A stretch of DNA of 39,697 nt, the filler included, from Acidimicrobiia bacterium (GTDB lineage Bacteria > Actinomycetota > Acidimicrobiia > Spongiisociales > SHLN01), in assembly GCA_041619515.1 (NCBI GenBank). It is 13 parts of 13 records of this genome, joined end to end, with 100 filler letters (N's around TTAATTAATTAA, not from the genome) between each part and the next. Parts side by side here need not be neighbours in the genome. Positions count along the whole stretch, not along the records: positions 30,953 to 33,408 come from JBFKDW010000143.1; positions 33,509 to 35,732 come from JBFKDW010000144.1; 11 more parts are not named here. One strand, 5' to 3'. The position numbers and the translations under genes were made by a program. Position 1 is the first letter of the stretch. Each line of letters starts with the position of its first letter. This document shows, one piece after another, positions 1,918 through 36,000 of the stretch. The notes under the pieces were generated by a model, which made no database searches, was not told where the DNA came from, and saw only the letters and a program-made list of their open reading frames with translations.

Positions 1918-2730
1918 ATGCGAAAGACCCTCGTCATCCTCGGTGCCCTGGCGCTGCTGCTCACGGCTTGTCGGGCCGAGTCGGCGACACGGCTGCGCAT
2001 CTCCGCCGAAGGCACCGCCACCGTCATCAGCGAGTTCGCCTTCGACGAGGAAGCACTCGCCATCATCGGCGATCTCGACGACACACCGGAAGATGTGCTG
2101 CGGGCGCTGTCCGAGTTCATCGATCCCTCGGCGCTTCCCGTGGCGGCGTCGGGAGTCGAGCCCGAGCAGTTCACCCGCGGCGACCTGCAGGGCATCAGGG
2201 TGACGATCCCGGGCCTCAACCCGGCCGAGGTTGCCACCCAGCTGTCGGCGGGCGACAGCATCATCGACGACATCAGCCTGACGCTGACCGACGGCACGTT
2301 GGTCCTGAGCGGGCGCACCCGTGATGTGCCCGACTTCGATCGCGCCCGTCTGCTCTCTCTGGTACCCGGAGACCTCGACGACGTGCTCGCCCTCCTCCTC
2401 CAGATCGAGGTACCCGGTTCGGTCACCCGCCACAACGCCGACCGGCTGACGGGTTCGATCCTCGAGTGGGATCTGCTGCCCGCCATCATCGACGGTGAGA
2501 GCGTCGTGATAGATGTGGAAGCGCAGGTCGACCCCGGTTTCCAGTTCGTTGACCTCGAGGGACGACCCTTCGCCGTCCAGCCCGAGGCCGAGTCGCCGGG
2601 AGGGGGCGTTTCCTGGTGGGCGGCGGTGTTGCCCTTCGGTTTGGCCGCTCTCGCTTCCTGGCTCATCATCCGCCGGATGCGAGGCGGCCGCCGGCTACCG
2701 GAGATCGAGGGGTTCACTCCCAAGGGATAG
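1918..2730 (+). CDS. Lipoprotein with C-terminal TM anchor (LppM/DUF3153-like)
   Basis: Signal peptide with lipobox LLTAC, internal PGSVTRHNAD...LEWDL motif typical of LppM-like proteins, C-terminal TM helix plus basic tail. Confidence 0.7.
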   Translation: MRKTLVILGALALLLTACRAESATRLRISAEGTATVISEFAFDEEALAIIGDLDDTPEDVLRALSEFIDPSALPVAASGVEPEQFTRGDLQGIRVTIPGLNPAEVATQLSAGDSIIDDISLTLTDGTLVLSGRTRDVPDFDRARLLSLVPGDLDDVLALLLQIEVPGSVTRHNADRLTGSILEWDLLPAIIDGESVVIDVEAQVDPGFQFVDLEGRPFAVQPEAESPGGGVSWWAAVLPFGLAALASWLIIRRMRGGRRLPEIEGFTPKG

Positions 2731-30851: not shown

Positions 30852-31017
30852 CNNNNNNNNNNNNNNNNNNNNNNNNNNNNNNNNNNNNNNNNNNNNTTAA
30901 TTAATTAANNNNNNNNNNNNNNNNNNNNNNNNNNNNNNNNNNNNNNNNNNNNGATCTCGGGTCCACCCTCCCGGCAAGTGCGTGCCACCCCTGTCGTCTG
31001 AGCGAGGAGGGATGGCG

Positions 31018-31230
31018 ATGTCCATCGTAGGAAGCAACCCCGATGCGGTGGTTGGAGGTGTCGACACCCACGCCGACGTGCACGTCGCCGCAGCGGTGAA
31101 CCACGTCGGCGGCGTGGTGGGATTGGAGGCGTTCCCGACTACTCGAACTGGCTACCGCCAGTTGGTGTCGTGGCTGCGGTCGCATGGCGAGCTGATGCTG
31201 GTTGGGGTAGAGGGCACCGGCTCCTGTGGC
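31018..31230 (+). pseudogene. Truncated IS110-family transposase (N-terminal DEDD part only)
   Basis: GGVDTHADVHVAA...FPTTRTGY...VGVEGTGS, after which homology is lost. An IS110-right-end-like TTGACATCCCTACGAGATTC follows at 31331-31350. Confidence 0.8.
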
Positions 31231-31544
31231 TCATCCCTGTCGTGTCCACCCAAGCCCACCCCGGAAGCCAAGCCGGCGAATCCCGTCCGGCCGACCCAGC
31301 ACGCCCACAAACCCACCTCCGAGAAACCACTTGACATCCCTACGAGATTCAGACTGCACGGGCTTGCACTCAAGCAAGGCGCGGTGGCGTCGCGCTCCGA
31401 ACGCGCGGCGACGCGGCGCGGCCGATCAGGTTGCAAGGGAGCGCGCGTGAAGTGATGGGATGAACGGGCGGGGCCTCCCCGCTCATCGGTGACCCGGCAA
31501 CATCCGGGTTGCTCATCTCACCAGTGTGAGAAAGGAGGCCCGAG

Positions 31545-32563
31545 ATGAGAGCTTACGTGGGTGTGGATTTGCATCGCCGCCGGTCGGTGGTGGTGTGCAT
31601 CGATGAGGACGGGGAGCGTCGGTGGTGGCGGCGGATTGACAACACGGCGGCGGAGTTGGCGGGAGCGGTCGCGGCGGCCGGTCCGGATCCGGAGGTGGTC
31701 CTGGAGGCGACGTTCGGCTGGTACTGGGCGGCGGATGTGATCGCCGAGGCGGGTGGCCGGGTGCATCTGGCGCATCCGTTGGGGATCAAGGGCTTCGAGA
31801 ACCGGCGGGTGAAGAACGACCTGCGGGACGCCACGCTGTTGGCGGACTTGCTGCGGATGGGGAGGCTGCCGGAGTCGTGGATCCCGCCGCATTCAATCCG
31901 GGAGCTGCGGGAGTTGGTGCGGTACCGGCACAAGCTGGGGCAACTGCGGTCGGGGTTGAAGTCCCAGATCCATGGCGTGTTGGGCAAGGAGGCGTGATCC
32001 CGCCGCTCAAGCACCTGTGGGGCCCAGGCGGGTTCGCGTTCCTCAACGAGGTCGAGTTGGGGGAGGCGTATACGGTGCGGATCGAGTCGCTGCGGGACCT
32101 GATCGAGGTCTACGACCGTGAGATCACCGAAGTGGATCGGTTGGTCCATTCCAAGTTGCGCAACGACGCCGGCTACCGGGCGATTCAGCAGCTCACCGGC
32201 GTGGGCAGGGTGTTCGCTGGGGTGTTCTGCGCCGAGATCGGCGACGTCACCCGCTTCTCCCACGCCAACAAGCTGTGCTGCTGGGCGGGGCTGACCCCGC
32301 GGCTGCGGGAGTCGGACACCAAGACCAGGCAAGGCGCCATCACCAAACAGGGCTCCAAGCTCGTGCGGTGGGCCGCGATCGAAGCGGTCGCCCGTTACCG
32401 GGGCGGCGTCCCGATCCGAGACACCTACCGGCGAGTGGCGGAGCGGCGCGGGGTCAACCGGGCCAAGGTGGCCGCCGCCCGCAAGCTCCTGACCTTGGTG
32501 TTCTACGGACTCCGAGACGGCGAGATCCGCTGCCTCGCCCCCACCGAGGAGGCGGCAGCGTGA
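31545..32563 (+). pseudogene. IS110 recombinase with a single frameshift near 31990
   Basis: GVDLH/LEAT/KNDLRDA in one frame up to LGKE; continues GVIPPL...LRESD...AAARKLL in another frame, as if one G is missing from GAGG(G)C. Confidence 0.9.
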
Positions 32564-32567
32564 GGGT

Positions 32568-32725
32568 CGGGCACGGTCCGGCTGCGAGCTCGACGAACGA
32601 CATGACCCCCACTATCGGCGGCGGGTCGACGTAAGTGATCGAGCCCAGCCCGGCCGTGGCCGCACCGCTTCATGCCCACCACCCTGTCGTGCGTGGCGAA
32701 GGGATGACCAGGCGACCGACCCCTC
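32568..32725 (+). ncRNA. Candidate bridge/seek RNA in the IS110 right end
   Basis: Stem 32568-32584 / 32646-32662 encloses an internal loop, followed by a second loop. Same layout as 33700-33858 with compensatory changes. Ends approximate. Confidence 0.65.
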
Positions 32726-33006
32726 GGCTCGCCGCACCCCACTTCGGGGTCCCTGAACCAGCCAACCCGTACCCCATCGCCTCTCGAGGAGAACCCGCCA
32801 CCAACTGACATCCCACCCGATAGATCAGACACGGCCGGTCGGCCCCGGTCGTGATTCGCCGCGTCCTCACCAACCCGAAGACGCGAAAACCTCGCCTAAT
32901 CGCCCCTTGACAAACCGGACCCGTTCAGGGAAGCCGTGATGGGCGGTTCGCTGCTCCGCTCGTTGTGGCGCATAGTGGATGATCTGCGTGTTCGTTCGGT
33001 GGGTAA

Positions 33007-33186
33007 CGGTCGCCGACCGGGCCGTACTCGGGCCGGAGGGGCAAGCCCGCGGATCTGGCGATCGCCGGAGCGGCAGAAGCCGCCGGGTTCTCCGTGCTCC
33101 ATTACGACAGCGATTGCGTCCGCATCACCGCCGTGATCAACCCACCCAACTCGGCTCGGGGGGATGGCGCCGACGCAGTACGCTGA
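33007..33186 (+). pseudogene. Degenerate VapC/PIN toxin remnant
   Basis: KPADLAIAGAAEAAGFSVLHYDSDCVRI matches the VapC C-terminal motif. In-frame stop at 33004 and no start codon. Confidence 0.6.
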
Positions 33187-33196
33187 GGCAGGAACC

Positions 33197-33406
33197 TCAG
33201 ACCGCGTACGACACGAGAATGGCGACCGTCACGAGGATGATCACGGCTATGAACGCGATCTCACTCGTACGATCCCGACGGCCACTCAACTGGTAGGCGA
33301 GGAAGATCCACAGCGCTGCGAACTGGCTGACGAAGTCCAGTTCCACCTCGAGCACGTTCTTCGCCACAACCGCAGCGACGAGCAGACACGCTGCGGCGAC
33401 GAGCGC
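33197..33406 (-). CDS. Small membrane protein (5' partial)
   Basis: Open from the gap with three hydrophobic segments (ALVAAACLLVAAVVA...FAALWIFLAY...IAFIAVIILVTVAILVSYAV). Confidence 0.6.
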   Translation of the reverse strand, partial: ALVAAACLLVAAVVAKNVLEVELDFVSQFAALWIFLAYQLSGRRDRTSEIAFIAVIILVTVAILVSYAV

Positions 33407-33699
33407 GANNNNNNNNNNNNNNNNNNNNNNNNNNNNNNNNNNNNNNNNNNNNTTAATTAATTAANNNNNNNNNNNNNNNNNNNNNNNNNNNNNNNNNNNN
33501 NNNNNNNNATGATGCATTCCTGTAGGAGTGGTTCCTGTCAAGACCCAATTTCGGGTTTCTGGTAGGGCATCGGAGGGGATCGGGGCGCGCGCGGCTGGCT
33601 CCGAGCGGGACGCGGGAGCCGGCGACGATCAGGTTGTCAGGTCAGGTGCGGTGGGCTCTCCCTGGTTGGTTCGGACGTGGTGGTGTTCTCCGTGTGATG

Positions 33700-33858
33700 A
33701 GTTGGTTCAGGCTGACCGGGGTTCGGTGCCGTGCATTCCTTCGCCCCGCACGGGTGGTGGGGGCATGGAGTGATCCGGCCGTGACCGACAGGACACCATC
33801 AACTGTGCGACCGCCGGTGGGGTCAGCATCATTCGCGTGCCGCTGCCGGTCACGTCCG
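33700..33858 (-). ncRNA. Candidate bridge RNA with target- and donor-matching loops
   Basis: Stem 33843-33858 / 33776-33791 (15/16 pairs). Loop segments match the element's flanks and end: 33796-33807 = 34973-34984; 33826-33832 = rc of 33509-33515; 33732-33740 = 33513-33521. Ends approximate. Confidence 0.8.
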
Positions 33859-33863
33859 AAACC

Positions 33864-34871
33864 TCAGGCCGCTTGCTCGAGGCGGCGGATATGGTGATCC
33901 CGCAGGCCGTAGAACACCAAGGTGAGCATCTTGCGGGCGATGGCCACCCGGGCGATCTTGCGGCCCCGTCGTTCGGCGATCCGTTGGAAGTCGGCGGCGT
34001 AGATGTGGTCACCCCTGGCCCGCATGGCGGCCTCGACGGCAGCCCACCGCAGGAGACGGGATCCCTGCTTGGTGATGTGGCCCCGCACCACGGTGGTGTC
34101 CGATTCCCGGTGGCTGGGTGTCAGCCCAGCCCACGAGCTCAGCTGTTCAGGACGGTCGAAGCGGCTCACGTCGCCGATCTCGGCGATGAACACCGCCGCC
34201 AGCACCCTCCCGACACCGGGGATGCGGCGGATAGCGTCATAGCCGGGATGGCCCACCACGGTGCGGTGGATGTGCCGATCGAATGTCTCGATCTCGGCGT
34301 CGAGCGCCGCCACGGACCGCCGCAGCGAGTCGACCCGCAGCCGGTACGCCCCGGCGAGCTCGAGGTCATCGAGCATCTGGTTGCCGGAGACGCCGAACAG
34401 GTCGTTCATCGTGACCGACACCCCGAGCTTGGCCAACACCGAATGCACCTGCGCCTTGCACGACGTCCGATGCGACACCAGCTTGGCCCGGTACCGCACC
34501 AGCTCCCGCAGCTCCCTCGTCGCCGGCGGCGCGATCCACGCTTCCGGCAGCCGACCCAGCCGCAACAGATCGGCCAGGTCCCGGGCGTCGAGGCGGTCGT
34601 CTTTGCGACGCCGGTTCCCCCACGCCAGCCCAAGCGGGTGAGCGAGATGCACGTCGAAGCCTTCGGCCTGCAGCAAGTCGACGGCCCAGTACCAGCCGTA
34701 GGTCGCTTCCAACACGACCCGAGCTCGGGGACCCGCCTTCCTCACCTCGTCGATGAAGACCTCCGGGTCGTTGGCGATCCTGACCTCCGACACCACCTCC
34801 CCGGCGGCGTCCATCCGGACGATCACCGACCTGCGTCGATGCAGATCGATACCCACGTACGATTCGGCCAT
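33864..34871 (-). CDS. IS110-family DEDD recombinase (transposase)
   Basis: GIDLH, LEATYG, KDDRLDA, LRELVRYR, IPGVG, HRESD, VAIARKML; intact. Confidence 0.97.
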   Translation of the reverse strand: MAESYVGIDLHRRRSVIVRMDAAGEVVSEVRIANDPEVFIDEVRKAGPRARVVLEATYGWYWAVDLLQAEGFDVHLAHPLGLAWGNRRRKDDRLDARDLADLLRLGRLPEAWIAPPATRELRELVRYRAKLVSHRTSCKAQVHSVLAKLGVSVTMNDLFGVSGNQMLDDLELAGAYRLRVDSLRRSVAALDAEIETFDRHIHRTVVGHPGYDAIRRIPGVGRVLAAVFIAEIGDVSRFDRPEQLSSWAGLTPSHRESDTTVVRGHITKQGSRLLRWAAVEAAMRARGDHIYAADFQRIAERRGRKIARVAIARKMLTLVFYGLRDHHIRRLEQAA

Positions 34872-35010
34872 GAGGGGCCTCCCTTCTCGGCGTCCCCCGT
34901 GGAGACGCCTCGGACAGTGACAACCGAAGTGTTACTTCGGATCGTCGAGAGCGGGGGCCCCGCTCCTACATCCCATCAACTGTGTGCTGCAGGAACGAGG
35001 TGGAGGCGCG

Positions 35011-35562
35011 ATGGCGTTGGACCGCGCAAAGCTCGCCAACATCGACAGGCGGCTTCTTGCCGACCTGGACCGCGAAGTCGACTGGCAGTTGGTCAAGGTG
35101 CCGGCGTCCTCCGCCACCTGGTCGACGTGGAAACGCTATTGCGATGTCGTCGGGCTGTCTATGGGCCGGGCGATCGCGGCGCTCATAGACCTCGAGTTGA
35201 CTTCCGTGGTCGATGTTGATGTCGACGCCCGGGCGGCGGTGATCACCGAACGATATCGCGAACTCGACCTACGTGACCAAGTGCTTGCCGAGCGAGAGCG
35301 AGAGCTACAGCGTCGTGAGAAGCGTCTCCGCGTTCGCCGCCGGCCGACGAAGGTGGAGCTAGAGCGGATGGCGGAGCAGATCGAACCGCCCGACCCAGGC
35401 CCAGCCGCCCAGCACGCACCCGAGATACTCGAACCCTCCGTCTTCGGTGGCGTCGGGAGGAACGAGACGTGCCCGTGCGGCTCGGGCCTGAAGTTCAAGA
35501 AGTGTCACCTCCCGGTGTTGGAGGGCCGTAGGGACGGGCCGGGCGAGCCGTCGAGCGGTTGA
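35011..35562 (+). CDS. SEC-C motif protein with coiled coil and possible ribbon-helix-helix N-terminus
   Basis: C-terminal VGRNETCPCGSGLKFKKCH; central E/R-rich coiled coil; SD GGAGG before ATG 35011. Confidence 0.8.
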   Translation: MALDRAKLANIDRRLLADLDREVDWQLVKVPASSATWSTWKRYCDVVGLSMGRAIAALIDLELTSVVDVDVDARAAVITERYRELDLRDQVLAERERELQRREKRLRVRRRPTKVELERMAEQIEPPDPGPAAQHAPEILEPSVFGGVGRNETCPCGSGLKFKKCHLPVLEGRRDGPGEPSSG

Positions 35563-35832
35563 GGTGCCTGAGCCCGATTCGCGCTGATCGGCGAATGCGG
35601 CGCAGCCCTGGCAGATTGTGACCACGGCGTCGGCTTGTAGCGGCGTTGACCGACTGGCGACTAGCTGCTCCGTAGAGCCGATGCCCGAGTGCGCCGAGCC
35701 CTTCAAAAACGTCACTCCTGATTGATACGGTGNNNNNNNNNNNNNNNNNNNNNNNNNNNNNNNNNNNNNNNNNNNNTTAATTAATTAANNNNNNNNNNNN
35801 NNNNNNNNNNNNNNNNNNNNNNNNNNNNNNNN

Positions 35833-36000
35833 CTCTTCAATCCGTGGGTGGACCGCCTTCCCAGCGGCGAAACCGCCCCGATCCAGGCTCTGGCCGGACA
35901 AATGGCGTCCCTGGAGGTGGCGAGGGATCGAGCCGTTGGCGCCGCCGGCCGGGAGGCCCGGATGGAGCTCGACGCATTGCTCGGGCGGCTGCGGGCCTAG
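35833..36000 (+). CDS. Hypothetical protein, C-terminal fragment
   Basis: Open from the gap (LFNPWVDRLPSGE...LDALLGRLRA*); its TAG overlaps the convergent LLM stop in CTAG 35997-36000. Confidence 0.45.
   Translation, partial: LFNPWVDRLPSGETAPIQALAGQMASLEVARDRAVGAAGREARMELDALLGRLRA

Follow-up and report, generated by a model that had tools for sequence, protein, structure and literature searches.

We describe an element that is very probably an insertion sequence of the IS110 family, IS1111 subgroup, with a bridge RNA (seekRNA) of its own. It occupies positions 33517-34976 on the minus strand of a 39,697-base stretch of DNA (the window, meaning the whole stretch analyzed) from an Acidimicrobiia bacterium (assembly GCA_041619515.1). 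Directly after its recombinase gene lies a predicted RNA with one module that matches both halves of the site in which the element sits and another that matches the element's own right end. The bridge-RNA mechanism was described in 2024, and computational predictions of such RNAs already run to thousands; we regard the element as a well-supported further example, an RNA-guided insertion sequence of the IS1111 type. The window joins 13 among the smallest contigs of a 3.1-Mb, 146-contig assembly, linked by N...TTAATTAATTAA...N, and the 1460-bp element, with a short left end of 105 nt and a long right end of 347 nt, is placed at the end of one of them (C144, window 33509-35732, 2224 bp). In element orientation, its parts and flanks are:

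34979..34986, minus strand: left target half (LT) CACACAGT, just outside the element; its last 6 nt are those of the 3' strand of the RNA's target loop
34977..34978, minus strand: core TG, left copy
34872..34976, minus strand: left non-coding end, 105 nt, beginning ATGGGATGTAGGAGCG and containing the left subterminal inverted repeat (34960-34970)
33864..34871, minus strand: recombinase gene, 335 aa, an unbroken open frame, identified from the reading frame, Pfam, NCBIfam and an alignment with IS621
33704..33866, minus strand: predicted bridge RNA / seekRNA gene, covariance-model extent, from the stop codon on (101.2 bits, E 9.9e-22)
33517..33703, minus strand: rest of the right non-coding end, terminating in CAGGAA, with TTGACA at 33536-33541 and the right subterminal inverted repeat at 33521-33531
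33515..33516, minus strand: core TG, right copy; the right ends of relatives read CTCCTTCAG(G/A)(G/A)A-TG
33509..33514, minus strand: right target half (RT) CATCAT, cut by the contig end; 6/6 against the sequence predicted from the RNA's 5' strand

The string matches that a sequence-only reading of the window had singled out are all present. Within the RNA region, CACAGTTGATGG at 33807-33796 is identical to 34984-34973 (12/12), ATGATGC at 33832-33826 is the reverse complement of 33515-33509 (7/7), and AGGAATGCA at 33740-33732 equals 33521-33513 (9/9). The guide-target match of this copy is perfect, with 6/6 on either side of the core. The 16-bp stem described in the same reading corresponds to an inverted repeat, I1 (33776-33791 / 33843-33858), which is 16 nt long and 88% complementary and is also present in the minimum-free-energy fold. 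As a chance test, we scored 2000 dinucleotide-preserving shuffles of the 163-nt RNA region: the 12-nt left-junction match was reached in none of them, the 9-nt right-junction match in 25, the 7-nt reverse-complement match in 246, and all three together in none. The 7-mer is weak by itself and gains weight solely through its position.

The frequency of the two shorter matches in shuffled sequence is what speaks for a reading in which the matches are coincidences of GC-rich DNA and the right boundary has been misplaced owing to the contig end, as do the many 11-12-nt inverted matches found within 1.5 kb and a right flank of just 6 nt. We hold this reading to be very improbable: no shuffle reproduced the three matches jointly, and the right boundary is fixed independently by the conserved right end of relatives, CTCC(T/A)(T/A)CAGGnA-TG, by occurrences of uninterrupted CACACAGT-TG followed directly by CATCA(T), and by two relatives with a full right flank, L004 (continuing CATCATCGGGGATGCGGAGTATACGGG...) and L150 (continuing CATCATGGGCCGATGCTTAGTATACGGG...). 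As far as sequence comparison reaches, coincidence is refuted. The two ends also carry a subterminal inverted repeat, TGTAGGAGTGG / CCGCTCCTACA (33521-33531 / 34960-34970; 11 nt, 91% complementary), which lies 4 nt and 6 nt inside the two element ends and is kept in relatives as GATGAAGGAGCG / CTCCTTCA; left ends across the family read ATGnnATGAAGGAGCG.

The 335-aa protein is assigned to the IS110 recombinases, as had been proposed, by both of their Pfam domains (PF01548: E 2.6e-21, 76.5 bits against a cut-off of 29; PF02371: E 3.5e-22, 79 bits against a cut-off of 21.3) and by the NCBIfam model NF033542, 'IS110 family RNA-guided transposase' (232.6 bits against a cut-off of 140). It also aligns with the solved IS621 chain 8wt6_A (E 3.9e-13), and this alignment pairs LEAT with IEAT, DDRLDARD with TDTVDAR and RESD with YESG, placing a glutamate, a D..D pair and a serine in register. 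The first aspartate (GIDLH, residue 9) falls outside the IS621 alignment and, by eye, inside the Pfam match, which starts at residue 6. Its motifs indicate that the recombinase is of the DEDD/Ser type. The C-terminal motif of IS1111 elements is given as GL-P----S(T)G (PMC11187229); here it reads GLTPSHRESD, retaining the serine and carrying aspartate in place of glycine, and the ESD ending is common to a second element of the window and to L004.

Relatives were collected by scanning one genome per species, which gave 80 loci, 55-79% identical and all from Actinomycetota. A consensus fold derived from 24 aligned downstream regions has 28 pairs, 17 of them with compensatory changes, and a covariance model built from those 24 sequences (matches counted at E <= 0.01) hits 77 places, namely 75 of the 80 related loci and both window elements, always directly 3' of the gene and on its strand; with L150, found among metagenome contigs, the loci with the RNA number 76. 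In the model alignment 94.6% of cells are paired and 22/28 pairs show compensatory changes, a result that none of 500 shuffles equaled, while pairing falls to 33-41% in controls in which the partners are slid. An RNA downstream of the gene, as the sequence-only reading had it, is thus borne out as a conserved and covarying structure that begins right after the stop codon. The minimum-free-energy fold of this copy's RNA has an energy of -80.3 kcal/mol (z = -2.9). Because the predicted RNA (163 nt) starts at the stop codon of the recombinase, it probably forms the end of the recombinase transcript.

The family fold runs from a basal stem to an outer stem around an internal loop with an inner hairpin, which together form the putative target module; next comes the putative donor module, a hairpin with a single strand on either side, and then a third hairpin. 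On the window copy these are:

33776..33858, minus strand: target-binding module, with outer stem 33843-33858 / 33776-33791 and inner hairpin 33808-33825
33826-33832, minus strand: target-module 5' strand AUGAUGC, complementary to the core G and the right target half
33796-33807, minus strand: target-module 3' strand CACAGU-UG-AU(GG), equal to the left target half, core and handshake
33732..33775, minus strand: donor-binding module, with 5' strand GAUCACUCCAU (33765-33775) and hairpin 33743-33764
33732-33742, minus strand: donor-module 3' strand GAAGGAAUG-CA, equal to the element's right end, core and handshake CA
33710..33730, minus strand: third hairpin GGCACCG-AACCC-CGGUCAGCC, past the donor module, placed by eye on the alignment

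The donor-module hairpin (helix 5) has compensatory changes in 4/5 pairs. By eye, the third hairpin reads GGCA...UGCC in relatives and AGCA...UGCU in L008.

This structure bears on a further reading, that the internal copies of the junctions serve as subterminal protein-binding repeats in the DNA itself, and a guide RNA plays no part. Subterminal repeats are frequent in transposons, the matches are after all between DNA sequences, and the public runs that hold the stretch include no RNA run. The matching segments, however, lie in unpaired strands of a fold with 22/28 compensatory pairs whose slid controls lose their pairing; they copy host flank, which varies from copy to copy and lies outside the element; and one segment is a reverse complement while the other is a direct copy of the flank, as reading both strands requires. 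Such use of an RNA has, moreover, been shown experimentally in related elements (PMC11187229, PMC11208160). We therefore consider protein-binding repeats very unlikely.

The more demanding comparison is between guides and flanks across relatives. Loop strands were taken from the model alignment, and element ends were located independently of the target guides, by the donor strand and core for the right end and by the conserved inverted repeat for the left. At 46 non-redundant loci, comparing the 8-nt right flank with the reverse-complemented 5' strand of the target loop gives on average 6.48/8 matching positions, against 2.72/8 in 1716 mismatched pairings of flanks with guides. By position, the match is 100, 100, 93, 89, 91 and 91% from +1 to +6 and drops to 48 and 35% at +7 and +8, with mismatched pairings giving 23-63% from +1 to +6. 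The guides concerned fall into 23 distinct right-guide classes, and the window copy stands outside this count, its flank being 6 nt only. The left flank follows the guide over fewer positions (match against control: 100/50% at -1, 55/25 at -2, 54/26 at -3, 46/33 at -4, and no signal at -5 and -6). The expected covariation of loop bases with each copy's flanks is thus found, strongly on the right and more weakly on the left, and the predicted TG core precedes the left end in 73/73 related loci in which that end was located.

Handshake bases, claimed in the sequence-only reading, are upheld in shortened form. The pair of bases past the core in the donor-module 3' strand is the one that opens the right flank in 42/46 loci (AC 30, CC 5, AA 5, CA 1, TC 1). 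Past the core, the target-module 3' strand reads AU-UGA across the family (the usual RNA being TG-AT-TGA) and left ends start AT-G, so that the handshake common to the family is 2 nt (AT) and not the 4 nt (ATGG) first proposed; the 4-nt match of this copy, AUGG, rests on one base that departs from the family consensus. The target-module AU is invariant against the AT of the left end, and the donor right end matches its guide in all copies, both sides being nearly invariant. In this copy, the handshake pairs (AU against CA, CA against AT) match the non-cognate partner and mismatch the cognate one, an arrangement described as necessary for strand exchange (PMC11208158). The donor-module 5' strand ends in CAU, facing the ATG that opens every left end. 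In relatives, a core followed by ATTG was tried as a signature of the left end and ruled out, since the ATTG past the RNA core is not the left end.

We assign the element to the IS1111 group because it combines subterminal inverted repeats, a long downstream non-coding region and a top-then-bottom guide order, features that separate this group from the IS110 group (Siddiquee et al., PMC11187229; Durrant et al., PMC11208160). Subterminal inverted repeats of IS1111 elements are given as 7-17 bp (PMC11208160), and in their RNAs the top-strand match is described as lying 5' of the bottom-strand match (PMC11187229); here AUGAUGC, the complement of the top strand, lies 5' of CACAGUUG, which is identical to it. 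ISEc11, ISPa11, ISKpn4 and ISPst6, IS1111 elements with a seekRNA, are described with the same set of features: a DEDD recombinase of similar size (330-350 aa; about 335 here), subterminal inverted repeats with short terminal extensions, a long non-coding region 3' of the gene, and a conserved, repeated target in the host or in a mobile element (PMC11187229). The present element differs from them in its host phylum, Actinomycetota, from marine or sediment metagenome assemblies, in an RNA that has no sequence match to a curated family, and in the ESD that replaces the S(T)G of that paper; it is also known from sequence alone, the level at which its completeness and native programming are supported.

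Comparison with IS621 (PMC11208160, PMC11208158) is instructive in both directions. Shared with it are an RNA of two modules, for target and donor respectively, guides that take in the dinucleotide core, handshake guides of 2 nt that end each 3' strand and match non-cognate and mismatch cognate DNA, and a -35 box in the right end, such that circle formation would complete a promoter spanning the junction. In both, pairing is weak for one donor-side guide, and discontiguous RDG-RD pairing has been described for IS621 (Durrant et al., PMC11208160). By contrast, the RNA lies here in the right end after the gene and in IS621 in the left end before it; in the present element the left end is 105 nt long and no match to the RNA model was found upstream of the gene. 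The core is TG here and CT there, pairing of the left target guide is limited to about 3-4 nt in relatives, the donor module has no supported closing stem, and the proteins are just distantly similar (E 3.9e-13). The order of the guides is also reversed in the element's own frame, in which both modules address the top strand with their 5' strand and the bottom strand with their 3' strand, the reverse of what is reported for IS621 (PMC11208160). Read on the opposite strand, the target is ATGATG-CA-ACTGTG and the donor TCCCAT-CA-TTCCTG; in that frame AUGAUGC, the 5' strand, spells the left target and is the left guide, and CACAGU-UG-AU is the complement of three stretches: right target, core and donor left-half positions 6-7. 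This layout would be the IS621 arrangement with handshake guides, that is, a left guide followed by a right guide, core and handshake.

By homology with IS621 and ISEc11, the element would excise as a circle whose junction creates a promoter, with TTGACA, 17 nt and AATGAT spanning the core. A junction promoter has been described for IS110 elements (PMC11208160). In the relatives, TTGAC[A/C/G] stands at a fixed distance from the right end in 49/52 non-redundant cases, and the (G/A)ATGAT that a circle would hold 17-18 nt downstream of it consists of the last two right-end bases, the core and the first two left-end bases. A complex of recombinase and RNA would then pair the circle junction with the target and exchange strands at TG. 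The 3' strands of the target and donor modules would each pass the core by two bases into the other partner, and these two bases, the handshake, would pair only after exchange.

The natural target, CACACAGT-TG-CATCAT, belongs to a conserved inverted repeat, of which it forms one arm, 24 nt upstream of a host gene that we call orfX:

35011..35562, plus strand: orfX, flanking host gene, 183 aa, outside the element; PF02810 SEC-C motif (E 1.9e-10); start 24 nt from the target edge

The only domain of orfX is this C-terminal SEC-C motif. Matches to it occur in 265/401 genomes of the order, at up to 7 places per genome and often at contig ends, and a tyrosine integrase gene lies near orfX in 4/7 neighborhoods examined. 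From its copy number, its contig-end positions and the neighboring integrases, the orfX unit may itself be mobile. The region before it looks like the control region of an undescribed repeated or mobile unit. Proteins of the family, of about 150-190 aa, are multicopy and often encoded near tyrosine integrase, DUF433 or PIN genes, and the family is preceded by the conserved inverted repeat ACACAGTTGCA ... TGCAACTGTGT, which encloses GTATAC palindromes. Just downstream of one orfX copy is another IS110-family gene (L093 2305-3360, minus strand), at which the RNA model has no match.

The empty site predicted from the element, CACACAGTTGCATCAT, was found uninterrupted in relatives, including a genome of the same genus. 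Upstream of 6/29 fetched orfX homologues stands uninterrupted TGATGCAACTGTGTG, the reverse complement of CACACAGT-TG-CATCA, with 0-2 mismatches, and in four of these six the bases past it match the right flank of L004. Across the 401 genomes of the order, a search for CACACAGTTGCATCA that allowed up to 1 mismatch gave 70 places, 25 exact, spread over 50 genomes, compared with 8 places for its reversed control. Eleven of the 30 fetched empty-site loci are exact and, by eye, all 11 have one shared context, in which the target is followed by GATGCGAGTATAC...GTATACCGC and then by an inverted copy of the motif. The orfX start lies 23-24 nt from the empty target in 7/30 fetched loci (tblastn), compared with 24 nt in the window, and the full 16-mer CACACAGT-TG-CATCAT is present in 8/30, one of them (L118) from the same genus. 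These site counts include three loci from unpublished genomes (L109, L111 and L142), and the conclusions are independent of them. A 13/14 match in the element's own genome (C1:73159) was set aside as being at about chance level and in an unrelated context.

Two relatives occupy the same site. L004, the closest at 79% protein identity, adjoins a gene homologous to orfX, as the window element does, and its homology to contig C144 extends about 190 nt past the left junction; the 8-nt left target half is also the flank of L004 and of L150, and in empty sites TG-CATCA follows it directly. In L004, at the left junction (1367-1396), the 14 bases ACGTCACACAGTTG, left target and core, stand twice in tandem, and its recombinase gene and adjoining orfX both look broken. 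L150, a metagenome contig, has an unbroken frame, the same site, a full right flank and about 75% DNA identity to both L004 and the window copy; its RNA lies at 2018-2177 (minus strand) and its left guide matches 6/6. It emerged from a scan of metagenome contigs with an 18-nt degenerate right-junction pattern, which gave 19 loci, 1 encoding a relative (L150) and 18 by chance; a scan of metagenome contigs with the 21-nt right end found nothing.

Several observations weigh against reading the element as a complete, natively programmed and active RNA-guided recombinase system. The assembly holds a single copy of the element and no empty site, and the right flank present in it is 6 nt. The gap that the sequence-only reading remarked on beyond those 6 visible bases is an artificial contig joint rather than a biological boundary; because the family signal runs from +1 to +6, the bases that can be seen are exactly the six that matter. 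L004 has an in-frame stop in its recombinase gene and guides that match its flanks at only 5/6 and 6/8, and the right guide of L150, CAACCT, is that of the other repeat arm and agrees with its own flank, CATCAT, at just 4/6 positions. The left-flank signal is weak (mean 3.00/6 in 67 non-redundant flanks, against 1.93 for mismatched pairings), and none of the 67 scores 6/6, this copy's 6/6 having been left out as a duplicate of the L004 flank. In the donor module, the 9/9 match of the second loop to the donor right end, core and CA stands as originally claimed; the stem GCCG/CGGC said to close that loop was rejected, being 70.7% paired in relatives with 0 compensatory changes and no better than shuffles, so that the module is not a closed internal loop there. 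The donor reading likewise holds for the right-end strand, and the left-end strand pairs weakly (about 4-5 nt, or 3-5 nt at the widest): for the donor-module 5' strand against the left end we could establish no register or covariation, none of those compared by eye (offset 0, offset 5, a 2-nt skip) being clearly right. The structure counts come from an alignment fitted to the model and from relatives that are non-independent, no Rfam family matches at E <= 1 across 31000-36000, and no RNA run is on record among the public runs that hold the stretch.

Part of this evidence would fit an element that is as we read it and yet stranded and immobile, an old insertion inherited vertically with its neighbor gene in which the open frame and guide matches are leftovers. 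Besides the single copy in the assembly, this would account for copies about 75% identical at the same site, by a homologous gene, in two other organisms, one of which (L004) has a stop codon and drifted guides, and for a recombinase that is a singleton at 90% identity among some 15 billion proteins. We think it rather unlikely. Unlike the decayed L004, the window copy has a full open frame and a perfect guide-target match. The gene next to L004 is 42-57% similar per tblastx piece, compared with 79% for the recombinase, and because the neighbor is the less similar of the two, separate insertions into a conserved site fit better than co-inheritance. Public metagenome contigs also join the left end and CACACAGT to at least 2 other flanks, possibly in close relatives, the contigs being of at least 90% likeness.

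The public runs with parts of the stretch are 13 DNA runs from seven studies of marine and sediment metagenomes, and their contigs (Logan), all short, resemble the stretch at 90% or more. The alternative flanks begin at loose ends at 34987 (X2/X5, X3) and hint at further insertions of the element or of close relatives; one contig (X5, record 31) departs from the stretch exactly at the element's left boundary. Another (X1, record 1) runs 22 nt past the contig end. Among the other contigs of the genome, none overlaps either end of the 2224-bp contig, and no circle-junction joint is among the joints listed for the public contigs.

Returning to the element as a bridge-RNA insertion sequence, it offers a clean natural example in which ends, core, both target halves, handshake and uninterrupted target are all legible. 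The family of 76 related loci in high-GC Actinomycetota, with its 23 right-guide classes, makes rules legible as well: a 6-nt right half, a TG core and a left half of about 3 nt. It is a usable point of departure for asking whether a compact high-GC orthologue (335 aa) works as a programmable recombinase, and whether IS1111-type RNAs tolerate a short left guide. The landing site is a further case of such elements living on other repeated units. IS4321/IS5075 and the IS1111 members that target attC or REP sequences reportedly also land in the conserved sequence of another repeated or mobile unit; the landing habit is similar here, in a repeat arm before a multicopy gene, and the target sequence and host unit differ.

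More tentatively, the actinobacterial clade could represent a variant form of the bridge RNA, with a sub-lineage specialized on the operator-like repeat before a SEC-C gene that is found by integrases, and the insertion sequence could be a parasite or an on/off switch of a mobile unit's control region; we rate this as possible and doubtful. Pointers to a variant form are lopsided recognition, in which six bases are read to one side of the core and about three to the other, a donor module that lacks a closing stem, and an RNA that, with its third hairpin, resembles a 3' tail on the recombinase transcript. The same repeat arm is occupied by three lineages about 75% identical to each other.

Among the relatives, a sub-clade spread over many actinobacterial genera has near-identical guides, with 5' strand GUGCAGGUCA and 3' strand CCCCUC-UG, and sites reading (C)CTC-TG-ACCTGC. 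Its members are L007, L012, L013, L021-L024, L026, L028, L030-L034, L036, L038-L040, L045, L046, L048-L050, L052-L054, L056-L062, L064, L066-L068, L073, L075-L077 and L079. In one of them, L021, the last 50 nt of the right end hold a tandem duplication of the terminal 24 nt or so together with TG and ACC (…CTCCTTCAGGAATGACCGGCCCCTCTCCTTCAGGAATG).

The second element of the window, also of the IS1111 type and diverged (66% DNA identity to the first), lies on contig C143 (31455-32931, plus strand). A frameshift divides its recombinase gene (31545-31997 and 31877-32563), and the RNA model matches at 32560-32737 with 112.6 bits. The left junction fits, reading GTGAAG-TG-ATGGGATGAACG; past the right end, CCCGTTCAGGGA, stands AG in place of the expected TG, and the right flank predicted from the RNA, TCGTTCG, is not adjacent, a similar string occurring about 57 nt further on. 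To the left of this element, 30982-31455 (plus strand) matches the first 60 or so profile positions of PF01548 (28.4 bits, cut-off 29), suggesting that the second element may sit inside or beside the remnant of a different IS110-family element.

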